Assembly (NCBI GenBank): GCA_016212095.1
Contig: JACRHH010000018.1
Location: 3,126-67,125, forward strand
From: Nitrospirota bacterium
GTDB lineage: Bacteria; Nitrospirota; Thermodesulfovibrionia; SZUA-242
Length of the DNA stretch: 64,000 nt
Reading direction: 5' to 3'
Shown piece after piece: positions 6,132 through 21,224 of this stretch. The notes under the pieces were generated by a model. The model did no database searches, had not been told where the DNA came from, and saw only the letters and a program-made list of their open reading frames with translations. The position numbers and the translations under genes are program-made. Every line of letters begins with the position of its first letter. Positions within the stretch are counted from its first letter, which is position 1.

Positions 6132-6201
6132 TACATTACCCGTCCGCAGTCGCGCATGTCGTAGCCGCCCCATTTCCAACCCATTCCCTATAATTCTATA
6201 A

Positions 6202-7623
6202 TTGCGGATTGCGGCCATGACCGCCTTACGCCACGCCATCAGGAGAGATGATTTGAAGATACTGAAAGCCGCGCTGCTTTTTCTTGCCATCACGGTTGTT
6301 TCGATCCGGACACCCGCCCTTGCCGCCATGAACATTGTCGAGGAATCGCTGGAAAACGGCCTGAAGGTGCTGGTTCTCGAAGACCACAAGGCCCCGGTTG
6401 CCACGTTTCAGGTCTGGTATCGCGTGGGCGCAATCGACGATCCCTCCGGAGCAACCGGAGCGAGCCACCTTCTTGAGCACATGATGTTCAAGGGCACGAA
6501 GAACTTCGGGCCGAAGACGTTCTCGCAGACCATAAACCGCGCCGGCGGAACCGACAACGCGTTCACCTCGCACGATTACACCGCCTATCACGAAACGCTT
6601 TCGTCAGACAGAATAGGCATCGCCATCAAGCTTGAGGCCGACCGGATGCGGAATCTCTTGCTCGATCCGGCGGAGGTCAAGACTGAGCTTGAGGTGGTGA
6701 AGGAAGAGCGGAGAATGCGCTACGAGGACAATCCGCAGAGCCTCGTTCACGAAAGCACCATGGCTGCGGCCTTCATGACGCATCCGTACAGAAACCCGGT
6801 GATCGGCTGGATGGCCGACCTGAACGACATGACAGCGGAAAAGCTGGCCGCTCATTACCGCCGGTATTACGCGCCAAACAACGCGGTGATAATCGTGATA
6901 GGCGATGTTGACGCGAAAAAGATCATCAGCGATATTCGCGTTTCCTACGGGCATATTCCGAAAAGCGCCGGAGTTGAAAGGATGTCGATGAACGAGCCGC
7001 CCCAAAACGGCGAGCGGCGGGTTTTCGTGAAGAAAGAAGCCCAGCTTCCGTACATCGCCTCCATTTACAAAATGCCGTCTTTCCCCGATCCCGACTCTTT
7101 CCCGCTCGACGTGCTCTCGATGATTCTCTCAGAGGGTAAAAGCTCGCGCCTCTACCGGGCGCTGGTTTACGAAAAGCGGCTTGCGCTCTCTGTGGACACC
7201 GGCTACGACGGAGTGGGGCGCGGCCCGGCCACGTTTTACGTCGGCGGAACAGTCGCGCCGTCCGACACCCCGGCGGGCAACAGCGCCGAGACGCTTGAGG
7301 CCGCCATCCGCGAGGAGACCGAGCGGATAAAGCGCGAGCATCCCAGCGAGCGCGAGGTTCAAAAAGCGAAAAACCAGGTGGAGGCCTCGTTCATCATGGA
7401 GCAGGATTCGCTCTATTCGCGGGCGATGACCATCGGAAGCATGGAGATGGCAGGCGGCTGGCGGCTTATCGACCGCTATCTGGACGGCATTCGCGCGGTT
7501 GCGGCGGATGATGTCTCAAGGGTTGCGCGGAAGTATCTGATAGACGACCACAAGACAACCGGCGTGCTTGTTCCGGTTCAGGCGGCAAATTCGGTTGCGG
7601 ATGGCGAAAAGGAGAAAAAATAA
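6202..7623 (+). CDS. M16-family zinc peptidase (catalytic subunit), secreted
   Basis: HLLEHMMFKGT inverted zinc-binding motif (HxxEH); N-terminal signal-like hydrophobic segment. Confidence 0.8.
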   Translation: MRIAAMTALRHAIRRDDLKILKAALLFLAITVVSIRTPALAAMNIVEESLENGLKVLVLEDHKAPVATFQVWYRVGAIDDPSGATGASHLLEHMMFKGTKNFGPKTFSQTINRAGGTDNAFTSHDYTAYHETLSSDRIGIAIKLEADRMRNLLLDPAEVKTELEVVKEERRMRYEDNPQSLVHESTMAAAFMTHPYRNPVIGWMADLNDMTAEKLAAHYRRYYAPNNAVIIVIGDVDAKKIISDIRVSYGHIPKSAGVERMSMNEPPQNGERRVFVKKEAQLPYIASIYKMPSFPDPDSFPLDVLSMILSEGKSSRLYRALVYEKRLALSVDTGYDGVGRGPATFYVGGTVAPSDTPAGNSAETLEAAIREETERIKREHPSEREVQKAKNQVEASFIMEQDSLYSRAMTIGSMEMAGGWRLIDRYLDGIRAVAADDVSRVARKYLIDDHKTTGVLVPVQAANSVADGEKEKK

Positions 7624-8957
7624 TGAACCGGATCATAACCAGATATTTTTGCATTGCCGCCATGCTGCTTTCGGCGCTTGCTTCAAACGCCGCCGCATCG
7701 GAGCCGCTTGCCGCGCGCGAGACGCTTCCTGGCGGGCTTGTGCTGATGCATTCGCAGAAATCGACGCTTCCTATAGTTCGCATCGTTGTCGGCATAGGCG
7801 CGGGACAGTTGGCCGATCCGCCGGGCAAGGCCGGGCTGGCAAGCCTCACTGCGATGCTGCTGAAGGAAGGAACGACGCGTCGCACCTCGAAGCAGATCAG
7901 CGAGGAGATCGAGTTCGTGGCCGGTTCGCTTTCGGCCTCCGGCGGCGGCGAGTACGCCACCATCAGCCTGTCGGTGCTTAAAAAAGACCTTGATACCGGT
8001 TTTGAGATCATGTCCGACATCATGCTTAACCCCGCGTTTTCCAACGAAGAGATTACGCGCAAGAAGGCTCAGGTGAAAGGCGCGATACGGCGGCGGATGG
8101 AAGACCCCGGCGATGTGGCATCAAAGGCGTTCATGAAGGAACTGTATCCGAACCACCCGCTCGGCTTTCCGTCGGAGGGAACTCCGGAGACGCTCGACGC
8201 CATAACGCGTGACGACATCGTGTTGTTTCACCGCGCATGGTATGCGCCGGACAACGCATGGATGGCGGTTGTGGGCGACGTGACAAGGCAGGAGGCGGGC
8301 GCGCTGATCGACAAATATTTAAACGGCTGGACAGCCCGCGGCGCGAAACTCGCATTTCCTCCCGTGCCGCGGCTTGCCAAAACGTCGGTTATCGCCATCG
8401 ACAAAGACATAACGCAGGCCAATATAATTCTTGGCCACGCCGGGCCAACCCGCAACGATCCCGACTACTACGCGGCGCTAGTGATGAACTACATCCTTGG
8501 CGGCGGCGGATTTTCGTCGCGCATGATGGACAGCATCCGCGACAACATGGGCCTTGCCTACGACGTCGGCAGCCATTTCGCGCCCGGCAAGCATAACGGC
8601 GTGTTCACCGTGGACATGCAGACCAAAAACGCGTCGGCCAAGACCGCTATTGACGAAGCGCTGCGCCAGATCGAGCGCATCCGCGCGGAGCCCGTGGCCG
8701 ACATGGAGCTTGCCGGAGCGAAGGCGTACATAACCGGCAGCTTCCCGCTTCGCATGGACACCTCCGCCAAGATAGCCAACCTGCTGTCGTCTGTCGAATA
8801 CTTCGGCCTTGGAATGAACTATGTTGACGACTACCGCAGGGCGGTTGAGGCGGTCACGAAGGAGGATGTGCTTCGCGCGGCGAAGAAGTTTCTGCACCCC
8901 GACAGATATGTGCTGGTTGTCGTGGCTAAACAGGCCGAGGCCGGAATGGTGAAATAG
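7623..8957 (+). CDS. M16-family peptidase, non-catalytic partner subunit
   Basis: M16 architecture without HxxEH; TAATG junction with the upstream gene; signal peptide. Confidence 0.7.
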   Translation: MNRIITRYFCIAAMLLSALASNAAASEPLAARETLPGGLVLMHSQKSTLPIVRIVVGIGAGQLADPPGKAGLASLTAMLLKEGTTRRTSKQISEEIEFVAGSLSASGGGEYATISLSVLKKDLDTGFEIMSDIMLNPAFSNEEITRKKAQVKGAIRRRMEDPGDVASKAFMKELYPNHPLGFPSEGTPETLDAITRDDIVLFHRAWYAPDNAWMAVVGDVTRQEAGALIDKYLNGWTARGAKLAFPPVPRLAKTSVIAIDKDITQANIILGHAGPTRNDPDYYAALVMNYILGGGGFSSRMMDSIRDNMGLAYDVGSHFAPGKHNGVFTVDMQTKNASAKTAIDEALRQIERIRAEPVADMELAGAKAYITGSFPLRMDTSAKIANLLSSVEYFGLGMNYVDDYRRAVEAVTKEDVLRAAKKFLHPDRYVLVVVAKQAEAGMVK

Positions 8958-9057
8958 GGGGGGATGTTATTCTGATTTGCATGCGAAGCCTTCCGGATTT
9001 GAATCAAGCCCTGTAAGGGCGGAATAATAATGTTGACCGGGGCGCAAGCCCGGTTAT

Positions 9058-9336
9058 TCATCTGCTAATTGGAATAACGCCGTTTCGCATACGCAAATCG
9101 TCCAGGAGTTCTGACGGCACTTTATCGTGGGTTTTGTGGACGATTATCCGCAGGTCGCTCGAAACCCGCACAGACCAGAAGTTTTTATCCCTGGCATTGT
9201 CGGGCTTGTGGAACCGCATTCCCGAGCTGGCCGGGTTAAGTTGCAGATCGAAGGCGGTGGTCTTTGTGGCCTTCTGCTCGTCGCCGGTAAGTTTGGCGAG
9301 GCTGTCGGTGAAGGTGTCGGAGATGCGGAAGTTCAT
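9058..9336 (-). CDS. Small protein (93 aa) of unknown function; C-terminal half RelE/ParE-like by eye
   Basis: MNFRISDTFTDSLAKLTGDEQKATKTTAFDLQLNPASSGMRFHK...FWSVRVSSDLRIIVHKT; first ~43 codons duplicated at 10708-10842; no strong ribosome-binding site. Confidence 0.4.
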   Translation of the reverse strand: MNFRISDTFTDSLAKLTGDEQKATKTTAFDLQLNPASSGMRFHKPDNARDKNFWSVRVSSDLRIIVHKTHDKVPSELLDDLRMRNGVIPISR

Positions 9337-9373
9337 GTCATCGTTTTTCGAACTGATGATTTTGAAATAATTG

Positions 9374-10564
9374 TTACTGCATCCAATCGTCACCAGGCAT
9401 GATTCGATGCATAAACTCATCGAACATAGGGACTGTGAATATTGTATCGCCATGATGGGGACTCCAAACCATGCCTTTGGAGATTAACTGGCTTCTGGTC
9501 GGACCGAGAGAAGTTACTTCACGTCCCAGCTTTTCAGCAATGCCTCCTGACCGATGCGGTCCGGGGCCAAGTTCAGCCATCGCACGGAGGTATATTTTCT
9601 CTGAGGGGGTGAGTCTATCAAACCTTACACGAAAGAAACTTTCATCGAGTGCGGCTATGGCGGAGGCTGACGCGTTTTTAACGTCCTCTTCTGTGATTGG
9701 CGACGCTTCCGCTGCATCCCACGAATGCTTGCCCCATTCCTGCACAAAATAAGGGTAGCCGCGCGTCTCTTTCACAATGAGGTCTAATGCTTCAGGGGTC
9801 ACTTCGACACCCTGATCTTTCGCCGGTTTCGCAATGGCCAGTTTTGTCGATTCCGGAGTAAGCGGCCCGATATCGGGAAAGTCGAACAGCCGTTCCGCAT
9901 AAGATTTCGCTCGACCCATCCGGCCCCTCAATTGCGGTAATCCAGCACCCACGAGAACGACAGGAAGACGGCGCTGGGCGGTACGATGCAGTGAGGTGAT
10001 GAGGGCCGCGAGCTCTTCCTCCCTTACATACTGTAACTCATCAGCAAAGATCACCAAGGCCGTGCCTGCTGCTTGCGCAGCTGCTCCGGCAGCCTCCAGC
10101 AACGCCTGCAGATCATGCTCCAGATCACCGTTGTCTGCCAGTCCAGGCTCAGGATCAAAGTCAAATCCCACCTCGATGTCTTCATATTTCACTTTGAGTG
10201 ACTTGGCGAATCCCGCCAGTGCCCTGAGCGCCCTCTGGGCAAGACTCTTGGCTTTCTCATTCCGTGAAAGCCTGAGCAGTGCCTGGCGTAACTGGGGAGA
10301 TAGGAGTGCCGGTAATGAACGATTTTCAGGAGCCTCTACCCGCAATGTCTGAATGCCGGTTCCTTCCGCATCATCTCTCATTCGATCCAGCAATACTGTT
10401 TTACCTACGCCTCGAAGTCCTACCATCAGGATACTCTTTGTGGGCAGACCTCGCCGCACGCGTTCGATGGCCACGCGGACAGTTTCCCGCACATCATCCC
10501 GGCCGGCGAGTTCTGGCGGCGGCGTACCCGCACCAGGAGCAAAAGGGTTTGTTATGGGATCCAT
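9374..10564 (-). CDS. AAA+ ATPase (ORC1/Cdc6-like)
   Basis: Walker A GLRGVGKT, Walker B VIFADELQ, 396 aa. Confidence 0.65.
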   Translation of the reverse strand: MDPITNPFAPGAGTPPPELAGRDDVRETVRVAIERVRRGLPTKSILMVGLRGVGKTVLLDRMRDDAEGTGIQTLRVEAPENRSLPALLSPQLRQALLRLSRNEKAKSLAQRALRALAGFAKSLKVKYEDIEVGFDFDPEPGLADNGDLEHDLQALLEAAGAAAQAAGTALVIFADELQYVREEELAALITSLHRTAQRRLPVVLVGAGLPQLRGRMGRAKSYAERLFDFPDIGPLTPESTKLAIAKPAKDQGVEVTPEALDLIVKETRGYPYFVQEWGKHSWDAAEASPITEEDVKNASASAIAALDESFFRVRFDRLTPSEKIYLRAMAELGPGPHRSGGIAEKLGREVTSLGPTRSQLISKGMVWSPHHGDTIFTVPMFDEFMHRIMPGDDWMQ

Positions 10565-10707
10565 CGAAGAATTATACCAAAATTAGCAAGTTTATAAAAC
10601 AAACATAAACCTGATAAATTTACTCAAATTAAACCCGCCTGATTTTGTTCAATAAAATGATACCCTAAAAACCTTCATCACCTCATCCCCCCCAATGAGT
10701 TATTTAC

Positions 10708-10842
10708 TCATCGGTAGAACCGCATTCCCGGACTGGCCGGGTTCAGTTGCAGATAGAAGGCGGTGGTCTTTGCGGCCTTCTGCTCGTCGCCGGTCAGTTT
10801 GACGAGGCTGTCGGTGAAGGTGTCGGAGATGCGGAAGTTCAT
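10708..10842 (-). pseudogene. Truncated paralog fragment of the 9058-9336 gene (first 44 codons then stop)
   Basis: About 130 bp nearly identical to 9199-9336 starting exactly at the ATG; followed by a relic resembling the 3' end of the methyltransferase gene. Confidence 0.45.
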
Positions 10843-10861
10843 GTGACAGCCAAGCAGCAAG

Positions 10862-11698
10862 TTACTCAGCCAATACTGGCTGTTGTGGATCGGCACCGAG
10901 GCTGATGTGATCCAGACGCCACTTCTTCAACGCCTTCGATTGGCGATAACTCATGGCTTCCTCGGAAATTACATCAACGTATCGAAGTTCTATTCCCTGC
11001 CAGTTGCCTGTTTCAGCGTTAAACAGCCTTGCCCTGAAAGCTTGTTCGATTTCAGCTTGCGCTTGATTGGCGGCGGCTTCCGCAGCATAAAAATCAGGCT
11101 CGGTCGTATGAAGGAGCGTTACGTCAAGCACATAAACATCATCAAGTCCTTCGTGGCATATCTCTTGCCCCTCGTCAACATCGAAAAATACAGCGGTAAT
11201 CATTTTGCCATGCGGTTTTACGGCTTTGGCAATCTTGTCTGATAACTTTGCGGCACTCAAGCGACGCTCAAATTCGTTCGGGAATGCAGATCGACGGTAT
11301 CGTGATGCCAGCCAAAGTTGAAAAGTAACAAGTTCCGAAGGAGAAAGCCGGGAATCATTATCTGGTGTAAAGTCTATGAGCGACTCTTTGAGAATGCTGC
11401 GTTTTTCTGCGGAAACAAATTCAGCCAGCAACGGCTTGTTGCCTTCGAACTCCAAATGGAGCGTCCGTGGCGATTTCGCATGTGTATTCAGGCCATTAAG
11501 TTTCTGAATCCGATACCCAACAATTACCTCTACATGTGGTTCCCTATCTGGGAGTTGGGTTAAATCGCAGTGATGAGTTGCAACGATAACCACCGTATCG
11601 CCGGGATGTGTCGGATGTATCAGACCAAGTGCTGCTACAGATTCACTTGCAAGCAAATGTCCTTGCCGCCATGGCGTATCCCTCGTCCATTCCGGCAT
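10862..11698 (-). CDS. Hypothetical protein, 278 aa, no recognisable motifs
   Basis: Long ORF co-directional with neighbours; visibly AT-richer than flanking genes. Confidence 0.45.
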   Translation of the reverse strand: MPEWTRDTPWRQGHLLASESVAALGLIHPTHPGDTVVIVATHHCDLTQLPDREPHVEVIVGYRIQKLNGLNTHAKSPRTLHLEFEGNKPLLAEFVSAEKRSILKESLIDFTPDNDSRLSPSELVTFQLWLASRYRRSAFPNEFERRLSAAKLSDKIAKAVKPHGKMITAVFFDVDEGQEICHEGLDDVYVLDVTLLHTTEPDFYAAEAAANQAQAEIEQAFRARLFNAETGNWQGIELRYVDVISEEAMSYRQSKALKKWRLDHISLGADPQQPVLAE

Positions 11699-11703
11699 GG
11701 CGG

Positions 11704-12378
11704 CTACTGCACCACGTCGTTTTCTGCCATCAGATCGGAATCGGCAGAGCTTTGAGACATTTTACGGTTGGCAAAACGCGCATCAAGGCGTTCTCTTTGA
11801 CTTGTCTCCTGTTCGACAATCTGGCGGAGTAACTGCGCGGCATCACGGGCCGATCCACCATCTTGAATCATCTCGAAAATATTCCTGCCATTGAATACCT
11901 TGCGTTTCAATAGAGCCCCATTAACCGGAATTCCTGCTTCGGCAAACATGTCAGCCGCAACTGCAAGTTCGCTCATCTTGGCTAAATGCTCGGGTGTGGG
12001 TTGCTCCCCCCTCAACCAGTTGTAAATTGTCTGGCGTGATACGTTAAAGGCCTTGGCGAGATCGGATATAGCAGGGGAAAGGACTTTGCGAATTTGCTCC
12101 ATGTCCTCGGCAGGTGTTCTTGCGGATACTGCCTTTACAGCGTTAGAACGTATGAAACCGGATGATAGTAACTCATTATTTCGATGAAGCTGCAACCGGC
12201 CAAGATCGTCTGCAAAAGCACCCGTTCCTTGGGCAACCAGCAATCCAGCCGTAAATAAAGCAACCTTTGACAAGCTGCATACACATGAAGAAGCGCCAGT
12301 TGAATATGGTCGATCATTAAACCATCCACCTTGCCTGGAATATCCCGCTTCCATTCTGTAATCTCCTGTTATTCCCAT
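11704..12378 (-). CDS. XRE-family helix-turn-helix protein (true start possibly the ATG at 12102, giving 133 aa)
   Basis: HTH segment LSPAISDLAKAFNVSRQTIYNWLRG; the upstream part of the ORF may be non-coding. Confidence 0.5.
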   Translation of the reverse strand: MGITGDYRMEAGYSRQGGWFNDRPYSTGASSCVCSLSKVALFTAGLLVAQGTGAFADDLGRLQLHRNNELLSSGFIRSNAVKAVSARTPAEDMEQIRKVLSPAISDLAKAFNVSRQTIYNWLRGEQPTPEHLAKMSELAVAADMFAEAGIPVNGALLKRKVFNGRNIFEMIQDGGSARDAAQLLRQIVEQETSQRERLDARFANRKMSQSSADSDLMAENDVVQ

Positions 12379-13163
12379 GAATTAAGGGCAAATTGCGTGA
12401 CTGTTGCCCGAAACGATTTCTCGATTTCAACGTGAAGCGCAACCAGTCTGGAAGCAATTGTTTCAAGGCTGAAGGCCTCGCGTTGTGCATAAAATGCATC
12501 GGAATCAATTATTGCGTGACGGCCTTCCTGCGCGGTAAATCGTGGATGTATCTGCGGTGCAAACGGAATTATTTCCTGTGGCAGTCCGACCCGGCCATCT
12601 TGAATAATTACCCGCGATACAAGTTGTCCACTTGCGTTAATAGTGACTGTTTCACTGTATGTATGTGCCAGTTTGCCGTCAAGCTTATGCGAAAGCCCTA
12701 ACACTTCTTGTGCAAGGTAGTCAGAAAACGACTCATCGGGTTTTGGCAGCACGGCATCAAAATAACGCAGCCCAACACGCTCGGTAAAATCAAGTCGCAC
12801 AACGTCATGAATAGTGCCCAATCCATCCAGCAGCGTCTTGAAAAACGTCTCGGAAGTGTCATAATCGGTTGTCTGAAGAGCCAGCGCGTTATGTTCCAGA
12901 ACAAACTCTGTGGTGCGATTAATATTTCCGAAAACGCAACGAGCCTGAGGAATGAATGACGGTTTTGGGGCCTGACTTCCGTCACTTGGCGAGCCAAATT
13001 GCAAGACGATTTTTTGAATTGTTTCCTGTTTAAAATCCGGAAAGTGTGCAGCCCTCATCCGTTCCTGAATGGTTGGCAAATACCCCTCCATTTGAAGAAC
13101 AGGATTGAACTGAACTTGTGCCACAGTAAAGTAGACCGGCGCGTTTTTCATTTTCTTGCCCAT
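12369..13163 (-). CDS. Hypothetical protein, 264 aa (tentatively TIGR04255-like)
   Basis: ATG with GGAGG ribosome-binding site; N-terminus MGKKMKNAPVYFTVAQVQFNP; family assignment is from memory only. Confidence 0.45.
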   Translation of the reverse strand: MGKKMKNAPVYFTVAQVQFNPVLQMEGYLPTIQERMRAAHFPDFKQETIQKIVLQFGSPSDGSQAPKPSFIPQARCVFGNINRTTEFVLEHNALALQTTDYDTSETFFKTLLDGLGTIHDVVRLDFTERVGLRYFDAVLPKPDESFSDYLAQEVLGLSHKLDGKLAHTYSETVTINASGQLVSRVIIQDGRVGLPQEIIPFAPQIHPRFTAQEGRHAIIDSDAFYAQREAFSLETIASRLVALHVEIEKSFRATVTQFALNSWE

Positions 13164-13182
13164 AATAGTCCTCCACTACAGC

Positions 13183-13223
13183 GGTTTACACTGAGGTTTA
13201 CACTTTACACCCAAGTTGACACT
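13183..13223. promoter_or_regulatory. Iterated direct repeats TT(T/G)ACAC upstream of the 264-aa gene
   Basis: GGTTTACACT at 13183-13192 and 13195-13204, TTTACAC 13204-13210, TTGACACT 13216-13223, just upstream of the ribosome-binding site on the minus strand. Confidence 0.3.
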
Positions 13224-13270
13224 ATTGCAAACAATGAACATCCACACCGTTGATGCGCCTCAAATTCCAG

Positions 13271-16057
13271 TTACACCCGAAACACCTTCATAACCTCATC
13301 CCCCAAATGATTAATCACCTTCACCGCAATCCGCCCGGTTTTCGGCTTTTCAAATGGTCGCGATGTGTCGCTATTCAGCGTAGCCCAGGCGTCTTCGTTG
13401 ATCTCGGCTTTGAGAGTGGTTTTCAGCGCCTTGTACGGGTCGTTTGCTCCAAGGAAGTAGGCGTGGCGGACGAAGAAGCTTTCTTCATTATAATCTGTGT
13501 CGATGAACCAGCAGGCTATTCCTTCGGCGCCGTCGCTGCGGACTTCGCCGGTGTTGGGGTGGAACACGTCCACGCCGTTGACTTTGACCCGCACTTGTCC
13601 GTCTTCGGCATCGAGAATATCAATATCCGGCTCGCCGAAGATGACGAAGAGGTTGCCCTTGCCGGTGTTCTTGAGGTCGTCTGCCATGTGTAGGTCGGCG
13701 TTCATGCGAGCCTTGAGCACGGGGATGCGGCCAAGTTTGTTGAATTCCGACGAATGGGCGTCGTAGTTGAAGGCGCAGGTGATCAGCGCGTCGAAACCGG
13801 CGTCGCCGGCCTCGCGGGCGGCGGCCACCAGATCGGGGCGGGAGACTGTGCCGAATTCGGGGCCGATGAAGATGGCGGCGCGTTTTTCACCGCCAGCATC
13901 CGCAAAGCGTCCTTCGGCGCAGATAAGATAGCCCGGCCAAGGGGTTAGCGCTGTGAAGATGACTTTATCTTCCTTGTGCGCCTGTTGAACCCCGGCTGTC
14001 TTGAGGTTTTCCAGAATCATCTGTACGAAGTTCCGCTCCGTGCCGTAGCCTTCCTTCGGTTCCGCCACGGTGTCGATCAATTCGTCGTCCACTCCCACAG
14101 CCAGAACCCGGTGCGGCAACAGGCTCTCCACGGTGAACGGCCCGGCAACGCGAACACTTTTCTTGTCGTCGTAGGGTTTATCGTAGAGATATTCAAACTC
14201 GGCCTTGGCGGCGATGGATGCGTCGATTGCCTTTTGCCGGGCGATGCGTTGCCGCCACCAGTCGGCGTGCAGCTTCTTCGCCGCCTCCGGCCATTTTTCG
14301 TCGGCCTCGCGGGGAATTTCCCACTCCTGCCAATTTTTACCGAGTGACTGGTTAAGCTGCTGGCGCAATGGCTCCAGCGTCTGTTGGAACTTTTCCCAGA
14401 TAACGTCGATTTCGGCGTTGTTGGCGATGGATTTTAGGGTGATGTGCGGCACGCGCTCATAAACAAAGCCCTGCCGGATGTCGCCACGAGTGGGCTGGGT
14501 CGACGGCAAGGTTCGGGTGATCTCGGCTTCCTTGCGTTGGCCGTCGGGCGAGTCAGCCAGCAGATAGAAAGGGTAGCGCGCTCCCATGATCCGGGCACGG
14601 GCCAGCGCCAAAGCAACGCGCGAGGTGTCGATGGTGATCCAGCGGCGGCCCCACTGTTCAGCTACATAAGCAGTAGTGCCTGAACCGCAGGTTGGGTCGA
14701 GAACCAAGTCGCCGGGGTCGGTCGCCAAAAGAATGCAGCGCGCAATGACCTTCTGGCCTGTTTGAACAACGTATGTCTTGTCCTCGGAAAATCCGGTCAT
14801 CTTTACGTCGTTCCAATAGTTTGCAATTGGAACAACTTCGAAGTCTTTCAAAAATCGTTTGTACATGAGAGATTTGCCAATTGGCCTTAAACGCCCAGTT
14901 TTCGCAAGCTGCGTCAGGCCCTTGGCATCGGTCTTAAACGTGCCCTTGCCAGGAGAAAAAGCTACACCGTTGTAGATAAAAGACGTGACGTCGGTTCCTT
15001 GTGCTGGTCGCTGGCTGGTCAAGTTGTCACAAGCAAAAACTTTCGTCTTATCTATGTTGCCGCCGTTTCCTTCTATCTCACTAGAATTAAGCCGTCGATC
15101 TACGCCATCGCCTTCATCAAACCAAGTGTATTGGGTAGTTCCCGCTTCGCCTAGGACTTTGAGTCGAAATGGTGGTCTAAATTTGAGTGCCGCACGATCT
15201 TTGGCAAACCAAAGGATGTAATCACTAATCGAAGCAAGGCCTTCTGTCGAGGTGCTGCTCGTTTTCTCGAATGAGATTTCTGACACAAAATTCTCCTCCC
15301 CAAACACCTCATCCATCACCGCCCTCACCCGATGAACATTCTCATCCCCAATCTGCACAAAGATCGACCCGGAATCCGTCAATAAATCCCGTGCCACAGT
15401 AAGACGGTCACGCAGATAAGTCAGATACGAATGAATCCCATCCCGCCAAGTATCGCGGAACGCCTTGACCTGTTCCGGCTCGCGGGTGATGTGGCCGACG
15501 TTGCCATCCTTCACGTCGCGGCTGGTGGTGCTCCACTGAAAGTTGGAGTTGAACTTGATGCCGTAGGGCGGATCAAAGTAGATGCACTGCACCTTGCCGC
15601 GCAGACCTTCGCGCTCGGCCAGCGATGCCATGACCTGGAGGCTGTCGCCAAGGATCATGCGGTTGGCCCAATGGGCGTCGTGCTGGTAAAACTCGGTCTT
15701 GGCGCTCTCGCTTGGGAGCCCGTTGAAGTCGGCGAAGAGGTCAGGCTGAACCTGCCTGCTCTTTTCCTCACGGGTTTGACGCAACAGGTCATCGATCAAC
15801 ACCTTGGGGTGAACCTTCTCCTGAATGTAGAGAGGCGGGGCATGGACTACCAGATCAGACCAATCCTTTTCGTCCTTGCCGCGCCAGACGAGCTGTGGGT
15901 CGAGGTCGCGGTTGCGGCGTTCGTAGGCAACTCGCACCGGGCTTTTGTCCGCATCGTGCATTATCGACTGATGCTCGGCGGTGGGAATGTTCTTGCGTGT
16001 CGCGTCCTCGTGGGTGAGGGTTTCGACGGTGAGTGGGGTAATTGGTCTGTTGGCCAT
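13271..16057 (-). CDS. DNA methyltransferase, beta-class (Type III Mod-like), 928 aa
   Basis: Motif IV IYFDPPYG precedes motif I DPTCGSGTT; NRMILGDSLQVMASL resembles the Mod N-terminal region; long C-terminal extension. Confidence 0.75.
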   Translation of the reverse strand: MANRPITPLTVETLTHEDATRKNIPTAEHQSIMHDADKSPVRVAYERRNRDLDPQLVWRGKDEKDWSDLVVHAPPLYIQEKVHPKVLIDDLLRQTREEKSRQVQPDLFADFNGLPSESAKTEFYQHDAHWANRMILGDSLQVMASLAEREGLRGKVQCIYFDPPYGIKFNSNFQWSTTSRDVKDGNVGHITREPEQVKAFRDTWRDGIHSYLTYLRDRLTVARDLLTDSGSIFVQIGDENVHRVRAVMDEVFGEENFVSEISFEKTSSTSTEGLASISDYILWFAKDRAALKFRPPFRLKVLGEAGTTQYTWFDEGDGVDRRLNSSEIEGNGGNIDKTKVFACDNLTSQRPAQGTDVTSFIYNGVAFSPGKGTFKTDAKGLTQLAKTGRLRPIGKSLMYKRFLKDFEVVPIANYWNDVKMTGFSEDKTYVVQTGQKVIARCILLATDPGDLVLDPTCGSGTTAYVAEQWGRRWITIDTSRVALALARARIMGARYPFYLLADSPDGQRKEAEITRTLPSTQPTRGDIRQGFVYERVPHITLKSIANNAEIDVIWEKFQQTLEPLRQQLNQSLGKNWQEWEIPREADEKWPEAAKKLHADWWRQRIARQKAIDASIAAKAEFEYLYDKPYDDKKSVRVAGPFTVESLLPHRVLAVGVDDELIDTVAEPKEGYGTERNFVQMILENLKTAGVQQAHKEDKVIFTALTPWPGYLICAEGRFADAGGEKRAAIFIGPEFGTVSRPDLVAAAREAGDAGFDALITCAFNYDAHSSEFNKLGRIPVLKARMNADLHMADDLKNTGKGNLFVIFGEPDIDILDAEDGQVRVKVNGVDVFHPNTGEVRSDGAEGIACWFIDTDYNEESFFVRHAYFLGANDPYKALKTTLKAEINEDAWATLNSDTSRPFEKPKTGRIAVKVINHLGDEVMKVFRV

Positions 16058-16058
16058 G

Positions 16059-17147
16059 CTATCGACTGCCTTCCATCATGGATTCCTTGGTCAAAATCGC
16101 ATTCAGCGCGAGGTTGATGTAGTAGTTTGTGCGCCCCTTTTTCTGCTTTTGGAGAAAGCCGCCCTGTGTCAAGGTGTCGAGATACTTGGTGGCGGTTAGC
16201 CGCGAAACTTTGAGATCACGTTCGACAAACTCGATTTTGGTGTAGGGGTGGGTAAAGAGGTTGTTGATCAAATCCTGACTGTAAAATTTGTATTGCGCAC
16301 GGATGCGGTGCTTGGCATCCATCAACGCTGCCTTGATGGCATGAATGGTTTCTATGGTATCGGTGGCGGTGGACTCTATGGCTGTGAGCATGTAAAGCGC
16401 CCACTCTTCCCAAGTGTTCTGTTCACGCACCGATTGCAGCAGGCGGTAATAGTCCGGCTTGGTGCGGACGATGTAGCGGCTGAGGTAGAGCACGGGAATG
16501 TCGAGCAGGCCTTCCTTGACCAGATAGAGGACGTTTATAATGCGCCCGGTGCGGCCATTGCCATCGTAGAACGGGTGAATGCTTTCAAACTGGTGATGGA
16601 TAAGCGCCATTTTGATGAGAGGGTCGGCTGCGAATAGCTCGCTATCGTTCATGAAGCGTTCCAGATCACGCATGAGTGCGACTATGGCTTCCGGTTCCTG
16701 CGGCGGTGTATAAACCGTCTGACCGGCGCCATTTTTTAGCGCAGTGCCTGGCAGCTTGCGGAATCCGGCGTTGTTCTGTTCCAGTTCGGCCTGTATCTGG
16801 ATGATGTGGTTGGCGGTGAGCAGTCCACTTCGGCGAACCTGTTCATACCCTACCCGCAGAGCCTGACGGTAGCGCAGCACCTCCTTGGCGGACGGGCTGG
16901 CCAGGTTTTCGGGAAAGAGATCATCCTGAAACAGCTCATCATGGGTGGTGACGATGTTCTCGATAGCGGAACTGTCCTTGGCCTCCTGCATACCAAGTGT
17001 GCTGATGAGAACGCCCTGATTGGGGATTGAAGCGGCCACCCCTTTGAGTTCGGCCAGTTTGCGGCTGGCTAATGTCAGCTTTTTGAGGATGGCTGGGGTA
17101 TCGAAGCGCTCGGTCGGCAGTTGTTCCAACGGCTGCATGGTGGTCAT
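16059..17147 (-). CDS. Fic/Doc-family protein
   Basis: Fic motif HPFYDGNGRTGR; 362 aa; sits between the res and mod genes. Confidence 0.8.
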   Translation of the reverse strand: MTTMQPLEQLPTERFDTPAILKKLTLASRKLAELKGVAASIPNQGVLISTLGMQEAKDSSAIENIVTTHDELFQDDLFPENLASPSAKEVLRYRQALRVGYEQVRRSGLLTANHIIQIQAELEQNNAGFRKLPGTALKNGAGQTVYTPPQEPEAIVALMRDLERFMNDSELFAADPLIKMALIHHQFESIHPFYDGNGRTGRIINVLYLVKEGLLDIPVLYLSRYIVRTKPDYYRLLQSVREQNTWEEWALYMLTAIESTATDTIETIHAIKAALMDAKHRIRAQYKFYSQDLINNLFTHPYTKIEFVERDLKVSRLTATKYLDTLTQGGFLQKQKKGRTNYYINLALNAILTKESMMEGSR

Positions 17148-17168
17148 TACCCCCCTCCTTCTTGAACA

Positions 17169-17202
17169 ATATGCATAGAAAAGAGACGTTTTCTATACAT
17201 AT
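17169..17202. promoter_or_regulatory. 14-bp-arm inverted repeat (operator-like) between res and fic
   Basis: ATATGCATAGAAAA-gagacg-TTTTCTATACATAT, one mismatch; lies just upstream of the fic ribosome-binding site. Confidence 0.4.
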
Positions 17203-17250
17203 TGCCTGCTTCATGTATACAACAGGGCAAAACAGTATGCATTACAGGTT

Positions 17251-20200
17251 TCATCGCAACTCTCCCCATTCCCCCTTCACGATATTTCCGATCATCTTGT
17301 CAAACTCCGCCGCTACCTTGGCATCGAAGTCGGACTCCATGCGGTAAACCTCGGTAAACTCGGCAAAGGCCCATCGGCCATAGCTTTTCAGGTTATTAAC
17401 GCCGGGAACCCAGTAGGTTTCCATGGTGGCCTTTTTCTCCTTGGCGTCCTCGCGGCGGTAGCCCTTGATCTCGACGATCAGGCGCAGCGGGTCATCTTCG
17501 CCATGTCCGTCGTCAACCAGAACGATGAAGTCGGGGATGTATTTCCGCGTTTCCGAGCCGTAACGGTATGGAACCTCAAGGCCAAGATTGTGATTTTTGA
17601 CGTAGGCTTTCACTTTGGGGTGCGCTTCGGCCACCCGGCAGAATTCGGCTTCCCAATCGCTGTCGAGGATAATCCAGTTGATCTGACAGCGGCGGGCGTC
17701 AGTCTCCCATCGATCCTTTTTGGATGTGTTAAAATTCACATGGATGGTGGAGCCGACGGGATTGTAGGGATCGAGTACCGCCTTAATGGGGCTTCCGCCG
17801 ATATGTTCACGGTTGATTCCCGCCATAATACGCTCGCAGGCCATGTCAGCAAGCATCTTGTATTTAAGCTGGGCCGGATATGTTTTCCCCGTGCAAACAA
17901 GGTAGTTATCAAGCCATTGTCTGGCAATGCGCTTTATCTGTCCGAATAGATGAAGCTGTGGTTCTCCGTTAGCATCACGCCACCTTGTCAAAAGAAGGTG
18001 TGAAGTTAATTCATAGACAACCTGTGAGTGTCTTATATCTCCCGTATGAACGAGGTTAAGATCAACCGATGCACCAATGATCCCGGAATTTCTGGTCTCT
18101 GTTGCACCAACCAGGTCGGGGGTCAACTCCATCACAGAGTCATCGTTGAACTTTGCGCTCAGCCGTTCCTCTGGAAGTTCGACGCGATAGCCTGCAACGC
18201 GGGGAAAGCGAATTTCGAGTGGATCTCGATCAGGTCGAACAGCCTTGACTTGAATGGTCTCGCGCGGAGGCTGAGGCGGCGCTATCACCGGCTTCGCGGT
18301 GAAGTCGAAGGGAATACCCAGCACATCGGCATATTCCACGTTGAACAGCCCTTCCTCATTCAGATCGTAAGACTGGCGGCGAAGCGCCCGGCCAATGACC
18401 TGCTCGCACAGAAGCTGAGTGCCGAAGGCGCGAACGCCCAAGACATGTGTCACGGTGCTGGCATCCCAACCCTCGGTAAGCATGGAGACAGAGACGACGC
18501 AGCGTATCGCTCCGCCCAACTGGCCGGGCTTGCCCACTGTATTCATAACCTCGCGGAGAAGAGTCACGTCATCGAGTTGTTTCCCTTGTTGCATTTCATC
18601 GGCGAGCTTTCCCCCGCGTTCTACGATCTCGCGGCGGAAGCGTTCAATCTCATCAGCAGCCATGCTGCGGAAGCTATCGTCGAGCGCTTCACCGGATTCG
18701 AGTTGCTCGCTGTCAATGAGTAGTGTGTTTGGACGAGCAAGCGGATTGCCGTGTTCATCGGTATTGCGGAACAACGGCAAACGGCCAAATTCGAGCTGGC
18801 TTGTGCCGTCCTTGTTCTGCCGTTGAAACCCGGAGATATAATCGTACACCAGCTTGGAGGTGGAGGTGTTATTGCAGACAATAATGAAACATGGCGGCAC
18901 CTTAATTCCACTCTGCTGCCAAAGGTTGTAAGTTTTTTCGTAATGCCCATAGAGCGCTTCCAGTGCGGTTTGCAATTGTGGCGGCAGGTCAAGCGGGTTC
19001 AGGGCCTCGGTCTTCCCGCGCCCCTTTTTCGGCATCTTTGTACGAATGTGTTCCCAGAGGTTGCGAAACATCGGCATTTCGCCGCCGGGGATGTTGTCGG
19101 CCACCGGCACGCGCGGGAGCTTTACGATGCCGCATTCGATGGCGTCCATAAGCGAAAAGTCGCTCATTGTCCAGGGGAACAGAGTTCCTTCGGCATAGCC
19201 GGAGCCGCTCAGGAAAAACGGGGTTGCCGACAAGTCGATTACGCGAGCAAGCCCAAGCGTCCGGTTTACGATTTCAATGCCTGAAATCCAGAGCCGGGCC
19301 GCTTCGTTGTTCTTTTCGGCTTCCTTCTTCTCGTCGCCGGTCAGGTTCTCATCTTTGGCGTTATGGTTTGGTTTCTCACGGTAGCAATGGTGCGCCTCGT
19401 CGTTCAACACCATGATGTTCTTCAACCCCATCAGGCCGGGCATCACCCGCTGAATCATCTGCCCTTCGGTTTCCAGTGTGTCAAGCTCCCCGCCGCCGCG
19501 CCCTTGCAGCAACAGGCGGCCACCCTTTGACAACTCCATCCGTTCGCGCAGCTTGAAGGCATGGTAATTGGTTATGACGATTTTTGCCTTTTGCAGTTCA
19601 TCCAGCATGTCGCCTGGTATAAGCTCCCGGCTTTGGTAGTAGCTGTCAGGATCGTTGGGCTGAAGCACCCGAAGCCTGTCGCGGATGGTCAAACCGGGGG
19701 TGACGACCAGAAATCCCCGCGTAAACCGCTTGCTGGTTGGCCGACGCACCGCATTTATGGTTTGCCACGCAATCAGCATCGCCATGACCGTGGTTTTGCC
19801 CGCGCCGGTAGCAAGTTTCAGCGCCAGACGCATCAACTCCGGGTTGGCGTCGTTGTTTGCGTTGGCCAGATGCTCAAGGAAGCGTTTCTTGTGTTTATCG
19901 ACATTTGGGGCAACTTCGGTAAGCCAGATGGCGGTTTCAACAGCCTCGATCTGACAAAAAAACGGACGGATGCCATTGAACTGATGATGTCGCCAATGCT
20001 TTAGCAATCGCTCTGTTTCCGGAGAAACATGCCAGTCTTTCGGATTTTTGAGGCTGCGCCACTGATCAACGTGTTGACGCAGTTCATTTATGATGGAAGT
20101 GGCATCATACTGCTGCCCCTCTGTTGAAAGCCCCAAACCTTCATCAAAGACGAAACGCGGCTGTTCAGCGGCAACCTTGCGCTTCTTCGGCTTGGGTATT

Positions 20201-20433
20201 GGCGTGATGAATTCAGCCCGGCGGCGTTTTTCGATGATCTGCTGGGTCGGCTGCCCTGATGAATCAAGCTCCCAATGGCGAAGCGGATACCCGTATGGGG
20301 AATTAAGGATCGGCTGTTCGAAAAAGCGGTTATTCATTGACAGGAGAGCCTCCCGGTTGCCAACAGGTATTTTTTCTGAAACATTCCGTGATTCCGGACA
20401 AAACGATGTTGAAGATTGCCGTTTTTCCCTCAT
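17251..20433 (-). CDS. Type III restriction enzyme Res-like subunit: SF2 helicase with C-terminal PD-(D/E)xK nuclease
   Basis: Motif I LATGAGKTT, motif II VLNDEAHH, motif VI QVIGRALRR, C-terminal PDFIVLV...LIVEIKG. Confidence 0.7.
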   Translation of the reverse strand: MREKRQSSTSFCPESRNVSEKIPVGNREALLSMNNRFFEQPILNSPYGYPLRHWELDSSGQPTQQIIEKRRRAEFITPIPKPKKRKVAAEQPRFVFDEGLGLSTEGQQYDATSIINELRQHVDQWRSLKNPKDWHVSPETERLLKHWRHHQFNGIRPFFCQIEAVETAIWLTEVAPNVDKHKKRFLEHLANANNDANPELMRLALKLATGAGKTTVMAMLIAWQTINAVRRPTSKRFTRGFLVVTPGLTIRDRLRVLQPNDPDSYYQSRELIPGDMLDELQKAKIVITNYHAFKLRERMELSKGGRLLLQGRGGGELDTLETEGQMIQRVMPGLMGLKNIMVLNDEAHHCYREKPNHNAKDENLTGDEKKEAEKNNEAARLWISGIEIVNRTLGLARVIDLSATPFFLSGSGYAEGTLFPWTMSDFSLMDAIECGIVKLPRVPVADNIPGGEMPMFRNLWEHIRTKMPKKGRGKTEALNPLDLPPQLQTALEALYGHYEKTYNLWQQSGIKVPPCFIIVCNNTSTSKLVYDYISGFQRQNKDGTSQLEFGRLPLFRNTDEHGNPLARPNTLLIDSEQLESGEALDDSFRSMAADEIERFRREIVERGGKLADEMQQGKQLDDVTLLREVMNTVGKPGQLGGAIRCVVSVSMLTEGWDASTVTHVLGVRAFGTQLLCEQVIGRALRRQSYDLNEEGLFNVEYADVLGIPFDFTAKPVIAPPQPPRETIQVKAVRPDRDPLEIRFPRVAGYRVELPEERLSAKFNDDSVMELTPDLVGATETRNSGIIGASVDLNLVHTGDIRHSQVVYELTSHLLLTRWRDANGEPQLHLFGQIKRIARQWLDNYLVCTGKTYPAQLKYKMLADMACERIMAGINREHIGGSPIKAVLDPYNPVGSTIHVNFNTSKKDRWETDARRCQINWIILDSDWEAEFCRVAEAHPKVKAYVKNHNLGLEVPYRYGSETRKYIPDFIVLVDDGHGEDDPLRLIVEIKGYRREDAKEKKATMETYWVPGVNNLKSYGRWAFAEFTEVYRMESDFDAKVAAEFDKMIGNIVKGEWGELR

Positions 20434-20561
20434 CCGGTTTCACGCATTGCAATGAGAATTATATCCGTCAGCCTTTTCCGTAAGCAATGAAAATAGTGAA
20501 CTAACCGATGTGTTGCGGACATGATCGCCTCCAAACACACGGGGAGATAAGGGAAAACCGT

Positions 20562-21224
20562 TTACCGCAATCTGCTTGCGAAACCGGAAACAGCCTCCGC
20601 CGTGTGCGCCGGAACCTTGCCCGACGCCATCAGCCGCGCCAGGTCTTCGGGGGTGTCGATGTCGAATCCCGGCTGAATGCGGGCGGTTGCAAGCCCAGCC
20701 GCCCGCGCCGCATCTTCGGACTGCGCCAAAACATGCGGCGTTGACCACTCAACTCCGGTAAATATTGCGCTACATGCCGGTTTTTTGATTCCCACCAGAT
20801 AATAGCCGCCGTCATCCGCCGGGCCGAAAACCACATCGGCGCTGTCGAGCGCGGCAAGCGCGTCGTCAATTGCGCCGGAATCGATATGCGGCATGTCGGT
20901 TCCGATCAGAACCGCTTTTTCCGCGCCGAACGACATGACGCGGTGAAGCGCCCGGAACATCCGCCCGCCAATATCGCCGTCGCCCTGCGGGAATGCCGGA
21001 AGGCCGAATAGCTCGAAATATCGTGAATTATCGGGCGTAAAACAGATCGAAACGGCAATATCGTCGCGGCCCGCGAATTTGTCGAGAACGTCGGCGATGA
21101 ACCCCTCCTGCAAGCCCGCGCACTCATCGGCGGTCAATGTTGGCATGAACCGCGTTTTCACAAGCCCCGGCTTCGGCTCTTTCGTGAATATGACGAGCGC
21201 CGGTTTCGTGCCGCTATCGTTCAT
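20562..21224 (-). CDS. DUF2064-like protein (nucleotidyltransferase-like fold); start taken at MNDSGTKPALVIF
   Basis: PALVIFTKEP...IGTDMPHI...GPADDGGYYLVG pattern; overlaps the upstream GT2 gene. Confidence 0.5.
   Translation of the reverse strand: MNDSGTKPALVIFTKEPKPGLVKTRFMPTLTADECAGLQEGFIADVLDKFAGRDDIAVSICFTPDNSRYFELFGLPAFPQGDGDIGGRMFRALHRVMSFGAEKAVLIGTDMPHIDSGAIDDALAALDSADVVFGPADDGGYYLVGIKKPACSAIFTGVEWSTPHVLAQSEDAARAAGLATARIQPGFDIDTPEDLARLMASGKVPAHTAEAVSGFASRLR

Follow-up and report, generated by a model that had tools for sequence, protein, structure and literature searches.

Two fragments of one helicase gene flank an AAA_16 ATPase gene in a Nitrospirota genome: a probable scar of cargo stacking in a putative Type III-like restriction-modification operon

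Why does the start of a small gene occur twice, in direct orientation, on either side of an AAA+ ATPase gene? The question is raised by a 64-kb stretch of contig JACRHH010000018.1 from a Nitrospirota bacterium (the whole stretch is called the window here), for which a preliminary description had proposed recombination between paralogous cassettes rather than a target-site duplication. Here, we describe that both copies of the repeat are pseudogene fragments of one large helicase gene, not working family members, and that this gene normally occupies the third position in a res-mod-helicase operon of the BPTD_3080 type, which has spread horizontally and is present in many phyla. The arrangement probably goes back to an illegitimate, microhomology-type recombination between two alleles of this operon that carried different cargo, followed by decay of the helicase; we put the probability of this origin at roughly 0.72.

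A repeat search in the window gave two copies, 9208-9338 (copy A) and 10714-10844 (copy B), each 131 nucleotides (nt) long, 94% identical and 1506 nt apart from start to start. In a base-by-base comparison 123 of the 131 bases match. Counted from the two minus-strand ATGs (9336 and 10842), the copies extend from −2 to +129, with eight scattered mismatches (+41, 48, 70, 88, 99, 111, 112 and 127) and a perfect run of at most 42 nt; on either side of these limits the two sequences are unrelated. The binomial probability of a 131-nt match arising by chance anywhere in the window is about 1e-49, and the duplicated gene start around the ATPase gene, originally read by eye, is real. The open reading frame (ORF) of copy A (9058-9336, minus strand) has 92 amino acids (aa) plus stop, that of copy B (10708-10842, minus strand) ends after 44 aa, as had been stated. 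The elements of the locus are as follows (all on the minus strand, with the basis of the assignment in brackets):

9058..9336, minus strand: internally deleted helicase gene, 92-aa ORF (tblastn of the tail, protein and DNA alignments)
9208..9338, minus strand: copy A, 5' end of the helicase gene that carries the internal deletion (repeat search, base comparison)
9374..10564, minus strand: intact AAA_16 (STAND-like) ATPase gene, 396 aa, stacked cargo (Pfam, full-length relatives)
10565..10630, minus strand: upstream region travelling with the ATPase gene (homology to the mod-ATPase spacers of loci L041 and L051, promoter scan)
10650..10705, minus strand: decayed 3' tail of a Type III-like mod gene, fused to copy B (blastn, alignment, motif scan)
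10714..10844, minus strand: copy B, pseudogene fragment with helicase codons 1-43 (tblastn to the helicase N-terminus, blastn to ~80 loci)

An assembly artefact was considered and rejected, since the junction is decayed and not a clean join, and the architecture is also found in the unrelated assemblies L038, L093 and L164-166. In addition, public reads assembled independently (Logan, SRR12113407, locus L167) are concordant up to the repeat: this assembly is 100% identical to window positions 13412-10815 and ends 28 nt into copy B, that is, inside the 42-nt perfect run, which is the behaviour expected of a genuine repeat in a short-read assembly. A target-site duplication does not describe the locus either. 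The repeat search revealed no inverted repeats bounding the insert, there is no transposase, and the sole gene inside is the AAA_16 ATPase gene; with a repeat of 131 nt and 94% identity, where a target-site duplication would be identical and have 2-15 bp, the earlier preference for recombination is borne out. The term paralogous cassettes has to be given up, as what is repeated is one and the same gene end, derived from two alleles or copies of a single operon.

This became apparent from the full-length parent of the repeat peptide. The peptide MNFRISDTFTDSLAKLTGDEQKA... is the N-terminus of a UvrD-like helicase of ~690 aa. In tblastn searches of plasmids it opens genes annotated as "3'-5' exonuclease" or "UvrD-helicase domain-containing protein", and on a Pseudomonas avellanae plasmid the gene order is BPTD_3080-family restriction endonuclease, site-specific DNA methyltransferase and a 697-aa helicase gene whose ATG overlaps the methyltransferase stop. 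The body of the parent helicase has the UvrD Pfam domains PF00580 and PF13361 and matches the PADLOC models for GajB and NERD+UvrD, as UvrD/GajB-type helicases do; of this the window keeps fragments only. A scan with one genome per species yielded 581 confirmed relatives of the N-terminus, of which the best 80 were examined. These 80 come from Desulfuromonadales/Geobacter and other Deltaproteobacteria-type metagenome-assembled genomes (MAGs), from Nitrospirota, Verrucomicrobiota, Acidobacteriota, Chloroflexota, Planctomycetota and Gemmatimonadota, as well as from Alpha-, Beta- and Gammaproteobacteria and others, and, with few exceptions, they are helicases of full length that have res and mod ahead of them if the contig is long enough. 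No description of a BPTD_3080 operon, or of a cargo slot embedded in a restriction-modification (R-M) operon with such a helicase, was found in the literature searched, where the three-gene res-mod-helicase operon thus appears to be undescribed.

Both copies have the N-terminus of the helicase family, a conserved domain of ~115 aa that starts with M-x-FRI(A/S)DTFTDSL. Residues 1-69 of copy A are 83% and residues 1-44 of copy B 77% identical to the consensus, and both align with the 80 loci. A UvrD helicase core was not found by tblastn anywhere in the 64-kb window, where only the last ~11-13 codons are left, in copy A. Because the core is missing from the window, both copies are pseudogene fragments, and probably neither of them is functional as a gene.

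In copy A, the helicase N-terminus makes up codons 1-69 (9130-9336), and residues ~71-83 (DKVPSELLDDLRM) match the helicase C-terminus (..TSGDVPSEFLDDLRM-stop in full-length relatives); codons 73-83 (9088-9120; from 9126 less certain) correspond to the terminal VPSELLDDLRM. Codon 84 (9085-9087) is CGA where the relatives have the stop TGA, and this adds nine read-through codons, up to codon 92. In tblastn the tail aligns with the final codons of full-length helicases in L003, L012, L023, L031, L007, L055 and L032, and the natural 3' end of the helicase and its downstream flank are still present. As read from these alignments, copy A is a helicase gene that would have lost about 600 codons (~70-677) by an in-frame internal deletion and its stop by mutation. 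A helicase truncated at the island edge after codon 69 was rejected, since the sensitive search shows that the tail of copy A is the helicase C-terminus. The ORF of the preliminary description exists, with 93 codons including the stop, but it is not a complete small gene.

The RelE/ParE-like appearance of the peptide, also pointed out before, holds for the fold but not for its location in the C-terminal half: the RelE-like part is predicted to be the first ~85 residues of the parent helicase. An AlphaFold model of the parent domain (P0090) had a predicted local distance difference test (pLDDT) score of 74 with only one of five models confident, and its top Foldseek matches in the PDB were RelE, YoeB, YafQ and ParE (E down to 5e-5, target-normalised TM 0.70-0.77, root-mean-square deviation 2.2-2.9 Å). 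In sequence, the parent domain scores 21 bits (E=4.7e-4) against PF05015 (HigB-like), below the family cut-off of 27 bits; copy A scores 12.6 bits (E=0.19), and a profile search of the PDB gave YoeB at E=0.47. Thus, the modelled domain is like RelE/YoeB/ParE toxins in structure but differs from them in that it is fused to a helicase and is not a free toxin with an antitoxin. Neither copy retains the complete fold, for copy A follows the domain to residues 69-72 and copy B to residue 43, and no small antitoxin-like ORF is adjacent to them.

Could the 92-aa ORF nevertheless be a stand-alone RelE-like toxin or regulator that is paired with the ATPase, the repeat merely reflecting its origin? The frame is open and retains 69 residues of the RelE-fold domain, it has the orientation of the ATPase gene and follows it at a distance of 37 nt, and many public proteins of 75-160 aa have such an N-terminus. 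However, copy A is without the last core strand of the model (residues 72-80) and the helix that follows, its tail is the helicase C-terminus plus the read-through of a mutated stop, it has the unusual residues T24 and P45, the latter at a conserved position, and no database match covers the tail convincingly. Among the short database proteins that were inspected the point of divergence varies, and they have frameshifts or truncations; the 120 best database matches to copy A all have ≤160 aa, which, as the selection of candidates may favour short proteins, is no sign that remnants dominate. A functional role of the 92-aa ORF is hardly credible on this evidence.

Copy B is a remnant, as had been proposed, and carries helicase codons 1-43 only. 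In blastn against about 80 loci, its match with the helicase 5' end invariably stops at 10714-10739, the limit being 10714 (codon 43), and it has the non-conservative changes D30Y and H43Y at otherwise invariant positions. It starts 19 nt past the stop of the gene for a 278-aa protein (p278), the same ~20-nt spacing as that of the intact helicase in L168-L170. Between copy B and the ATPase gene we found a tail of a mod gene, which was absent from the earlier account. This remnant encodes ..VINHLGDEVMKVFRV, has lost its stop and has one extra G. In a comparison that included the mod ends of four loci (L012, L041, L051 and L020) and of the window itself, it is identical in 29/29 nt to the mod 3' end of L012 (a Desulfuromonas genome) but has 4-5 differences in ~33 positions (about 86% identity) to the resident mod tail. 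Near the joint, the helicase has ATGCGGT and the mod gene TTGCGGT, which share TGCGGT; these overlapping strings were read by eye in a joint that is degenerate. Also by eye, an imperfect palindrome, CCAATGAGT-TATTT-ACTCATCGG on the plus strand, was spotted at the joint (10695-10717).

The gene enclosed by the repeat is intact. Its product matches Pfam AAA_16 (PF13191) over the whole model with E=1e-18 and 68.7 bits (cut-off 32.6), and relatives from 80 metagenome loci with 76-92% identity align over residues 1-394 of 396. PADLOC gave no match, so that a role of the ATPase in defence would be suggested by its context alone. Upstream, a promoter-like site (TTTATA-16-TATAAT with an upstream TG) is predicted at 10598-10571 by a promoter scan, and in many metagenome loci the homology upstream of the ATPase gene ends at ~10628-10630. 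The gene and ~65 nt upstream of it (9374-10630) behave as a discrete module of ~1.25 kb; most of the 80 metagenome contigs (L083-L162) have no R-M operon nearby, and clustering of the ORFs within 3.5 kb in these 80 loci revealed no recurrent neighbour that could be a fixed partner. The helicase that follows the ATPase gene is frequently defective, having an internal deletion or breaking off after 20-80 codons, and the window is one of several such cases (others are L097 7181-7438, L099 2716-2853, L084 3136-3197 and L093 4907-5140).

Altogether, the operon of the window reads res - SoFic - mod - (TIGR04255/HTH/p278) - helicase 1-43::mod tail - promoter - ATPase - deleted helicase, and is now without a helicase. 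Its remaining parts are:

13271..20433, minus strand: R-M core, all genes full length (NCBIfam, PADLOC, Pfam)
17251-20433: res, BPTD_3080 family (NCBIfam NF046055, Pfam ResIII and RE_endonuc)
16059-17147: SoFic, embedded between res and mod (NCBIfam, PADLOC)
13271-16057: Type III-like mod (PADLOC MTase_III, Pfam N6_N4_Mtase)
10862..13163, minus strand: resident three-gene cargo (NCBIfam, Pfam)
12369-13163, minus strand: TIGR04255-family protein
11704-12378, minus strand: helix-turn-helix (HTH) protein
10862-11698, minus strand: p278, without Pfam domains
8940..20601, no strand: whole island, 11.66 kb (absent from the close relative L163)

The position of the ATPase gene between a mod and a helicase sequence is not unusual. 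In 62 loci with both the mod end and the helicase start present, the gap between the two genes ranges from 2 nt to 7915 nt; it is ≤100 nt in 10 loci and >600 nt in 52, and six compact loci have a gap of 2-5 nt. The genes in the gap nearly always run in the direction of the operon, and frequently the last of them stops within a few bases of the helicase ATG. Homology between loci stops at the mod stop and resumes at the helicase ATG. Representative genes found there are AAA_15/AAA_21 ATPases, ABC-3C components (CTD6, MC2), HerA with SIR2, RhuM, GmrSD, AbiJ, SIR2, HTH with PIN, and AAA with S8 peptidase. The mod-helicase junction is a variable slot for co-oriented cargo, much of it defence-type. 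The gene ends that border the slot are conserved across phyla, with amino acid identities of ~80-85% in the RelE-like N-domain of the helicase and ~85-95% at the mod C-terminus. In 63 loci, identity at four-fold degenerate sites is 0.48 in helicase codons 1-25 compared to about 0.30-0.38 (~0.33) along most of the remainder, and the last 58 codons of mod have no raised synonymous conservation; with a modest excess in the helicase and none in mod, the conservation of the flanks is mainly at the level of the protein.

Both arrangements that are combined in the window occur intact elsewhere. The TIGR04255/HTH/p278 trio directly abuts an intact 690-aa helicase in L168-L170 (Desulfuromonadales MAGs; L168 3261-5554) and follows mod in an ENA contig, and window positions 13235-10723 are collinear with L168 3189-5695 (72%). 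For the ATPase gene, four loci (L041, L051, L095 and L127) have the order mod, ATPase, intact helicase; in L020 the order is the same, but the helicase is a 5' end cut off by the contig.

The event we favour is a single illegitimate join, in which the helicase 5' end of an allele with the p278 cargo would have been connected to the mod tail of an allele with the ATPase gene, the right-hand side being resolved through homology in the helicase. The route may have been an unequal crossover or a homology-facilitated illegitimate recombination of incoming DNA. The ATPase gene would have brought along the tail of the mod gene that precedes it elsewhere and would have been joined into the helicase at codon 43. 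As a result, two cargo sets would be stacked, the helicase-5'::mod-tail hybrid would be the scar, and the helicase start would be duplicated on both sides of the new cargo. In compact loci mod and helicase are direct neighbours, so that a join without precision can hardly retain both sets of cargo and not leave a scar of this kind. At a later stage, the remaining helicase copy would have lost its body by the in-frame internal deletion, and its stop codon as well. Homology-facilitated illegitimate recombination in naturally transformable bacteria and microhomology-mediated unequal crossover both combine one homologous anchor with one illegitimate joint at a few shared bases, which can insert foreign DNA and duplicate or delete neighbouring sequence. 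This fits the joints seen here as a mechanism only, compatible with entry of the DNA by transformation, by conjugation or by intragenomic exchange. An origin by a transposon, an integron or a tRNA integrase was rejected because no such genes or sites were found.

Several points weigh against this reconstruction. The order and number of events are not readable from one sequence, and the pre-insertion allele was not seen in this lineage, the sole close relative found (L163) being without the whole island. The foreign origin of the mod tail rests on only ~33 nt, and the microhomologies were read by eye, with a degenerate joint in the window. Moreover, the two helicase starts are each other's closest relatives, with 94% identity compared to at most 87% to any other of ~80 loci, and a mutual identity of 94% fits a duplication in situ as well as a recombination between closely related alleles. 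Indeed, an in-situ tandem duplication is the main rival: in a mod-ATPase-helicase locus, a microhomology-mediated unequal sister exchange would have produced a second copy of the stretch that begins in the mod tail and ends at helicase codon 43, and the upstream ATPase copy would then have been replaced by the TIGR04255/HTH/p278 cargo through homologous recombination in mod and in the 131-nt helicase fragment. Tandem duplications at microhomologies are common in bacteria, a helicase 5' end followed by a mod tail is exactly the type of junction that a head-to-tail duplication leaves, and the corresponding pair of helicase starts in L093 is even 98% identical. However, this course needs two or more events instead of one, and none of the loci examined has two ATPase copies in tandem. 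The mod tail remnant, too, differs from the resident tail and agrees with that of L012, a statistically weak argument, and the spacing between p278 and copy B together with the collinearity with L168 points to copy B as the native partner of the p278 cargo. We therefore regard the tandem duplication as unlikely and prefer the recombination between two alleles.

Similar scars are found elsewhere. Among the 80 genome loci, additional helicase-start fragments occur in L024, L038, L058, L066 and L078; the order in L038 is mod - GmrSD - helicase 1-44::last 25 aa of mod - two large genes - helicase. Among the 80 metagenome loci selected by the ATPase, L093 has helicase 11-69::mod tail - ATPase - helicase 1-78 (truncated), and L111 has helicase 1-114 ahead of the ATPase. 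In P0099 (three NCBI assemblies, L164-166) helicase 1-82 is fused to mod ~875-928, between an S8-peptidase cargo gene on one side and a distant (51%) AAA_16 gene on the other. The helicase breakpoints are at codons 18, 22, 28, 38, 43, 44, 69, 82 and 114 and those in mod at about 875 to 912; they differ and are therefore separate events. Short strings common to both sides of the joints, read by eye, are AAGC in L038 and AAGAC in L093. The identity of the remnant to its partner is 98% in L093, 94% in the window, 87% in L078 and 74-81% in the others, which looks like a series of ages.

The breakpoints show one regularity that would not be expected if illegitimate joining were entirely random. Two of them at codons 43/44 and three at codon 69 lie within a few bases after CACAAG or CACAAA (His-Lys): in the window at 10714-10716 and 9130-9138 (codons 67-69), in L038 at 4896, in L078 at 6048 and in L093 at 3440. 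The clustering could be due to chance, to microhomology with Lys codons in the mod tail or to a preferred break site; plain illegitimate recombination leaves unexplained both the clustering and the raised synonymous conservation of helicase codons 1-25. These two observations would be accommodated if a unit of mod tail, cargo and helicase start were moved by a dedicated, site-specific or sequence-guided mobility with the repeats being att-like, either in an integron-like manner or as a circular intermediate that integrates Campbell-style into the helicase 5' end. The helicase-5'::mod-tail hybrid is present in at least four independent loci, in three of them ahead of an AAA_16 gene, and the ATPase gene, with its sharp boundaries and its unrelated contexts in most of the 80 metagenome loci, behaves as a discrete module. 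Yet the breakpoints are scattered over helicase codons 18 to 114 and over the mod tail, where excess synonymous conservation is lacking, and the older scars are no closer to their partner than to unrelated loci. In the island ORFs scanned with Pfam, NCBIfam and PADLOC there was no integrase, transposase, relaxase or other recombinase domain, and no inverted-repeat ends were seen. Stacked co-oriented cargo with recurring boundary elements downstream of a fixed platform is reminiscent of integron cassette arrays, but the boundaries here are gene fragments with variable breakpoints, and no attC-like structure was seen, attC models not having been specifically searched. Dedicated cassette mobility is thus quite improbable, and recombination between two alleles is still the better explanation of the scar.

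It is tempting to speculate that the mod-helicase junction is a general cargo platform that works without a recombinase, with the hybrids as cassette boundaries, the conserved gene ends as homology anchors, and the CACAAG breakpoints and codons 1-25 as a preferred recombination site; we put this forward tentatively, as a possibility with the odds rather against it. If true, a mobile R-M operon would be the place in which bacteria of many phyla take up and accumulate genes against phages. Taken alone, the repeat is a pair of pseudogene scars and ordinary genome decay; its value is in the context. The scars show at the nucleotide level how a new cargo gene was added beside an old one without a dedicated recombinase, and they provide a testable picture of how defence islands grow. 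In addition, a helicase start followed by a mod tail is a search key that could reveal more stacked cargo, including the uncharacterised TIGR04255/HTH/278-aa trio and the promiscuous AAA_16 ATPase.

Defence genes embedded in an R-M or BREX cluster and travelling with it have precedents in PrrC, which lies inside the Type IC EcoprrI locus, and in the GmrSD homologue BrxU in a BREX island (PMC12707154). SoFic between res and mod, and the diverse cargo between mod and helicase, resemble these cases, but the host is here an uncharacterised Type III-like res-mod-helicase operon, and the slot is a gene junction of 2-5 nt that is used across phyla by many types of cargo and in which the scars of duplicated gene ends are visible. 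Replaceable defence cargo between conserved flanks, exchanged presumably by recombination in the flanks, is also known from P2/P4 hotspots, the E. coli immigration control region and hotspot 37 (PMC12707154). In contrast to these, the flanks here are two genes of one operon and not phage, satellite or chromosomal core genes; the cargo is predicted to be co-transcribable with them, and what moves is the operon itself, the island being absent from L163.

That the host operon is an R-M system of Type III-like architecture is deduced from domain matches. Res scores 1367 bits against NF046055 (BPTD_3080 family restriction endonuclease; cut-off 800) with full coverage of the model and has the helicase-like ATPase (ResIII) and the endonuclease domain (RE_endonuc) of a Type III Res in Pfam. 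Its match to the PADLOC REase_III models is marginal (E about 3e-4), so that "Type III-like" is the safer label. Mod matches PADLOC MTase_III with E=0 and Pfam N6_N4_Mtase with E=1e-32, as expected of a Type III Mod. Its residues 262-435 are 22-40% identical among 33 homologues, compared to 70-95% over most of the remainder, a variability that would be expected of a swappable target-recognition domain. In several loci mod also has a variable insertion near residue 815-828. SoFic reaches 362 bits, below the equivalog cut-off of 550 bits, and E=2e-116 in PADLOC. There is a second slot between res and mod, where SoFic is found in the window and in several other loci. In L024 (1925-3532) and L045 (2681-2818) mod 5' remnants lie upstream of the full mod, an analogous scar of a duplicated gene start in the res-mod slot. 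In L014 (5848-7545, Ignavibacteriota) mod is split at about codon 870 by a 1.8-kb insert with a 565-aa ORF on the opposite strand, which resembles an insertion sequence.

With regard to the resident cargo, p278 has hundreds of database relatives, and the trio is a recurrent cargo module of the slot that is not in PADLOC; it may be an undescribed defence candidate. p278 is identical to the NCBI "Nitrospirae bacterium" protein HZA20_07540, and look-ups by exact sequence with the ATPase, M16 peptidase and mod proteins of the window gave no match. In L168 (743-2826), an rve-integrase gene and an AAA_22/IstB-like gene, an IS21-like pair, are found where mod is expected upstream of the cargo, and the R-M part may have been displaced there.

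The M16 peptidase next to the island in the window has its best matches in Thermodesulfovibrionales and Nitrospiraceae and is 92% identical to that of L163. In L163, 41 nt separate the flanks of the island, the genes for the M16 peptidase and a DUF2064/CofC-like protein (L163 1720-4484 corresponds to window 6168-8939, and L163 4526-5130 to window 20602-21206), and 8940-20601 is therefore an inserted island. Its G+C content is lower than that of the flanks. No tRNA gene is located at the island boundary; the one tRNA gene lies elsewhere. At 4471-4502 of L163, the end of the M16 peptidase gene and the DUF2064/CofC-like gene have about 30 nt in common, and the island of the window sits exactly there. 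The 3' ends of both island-flanking genes differ from those in L163 (window 8940-8957 and 20562-20601).

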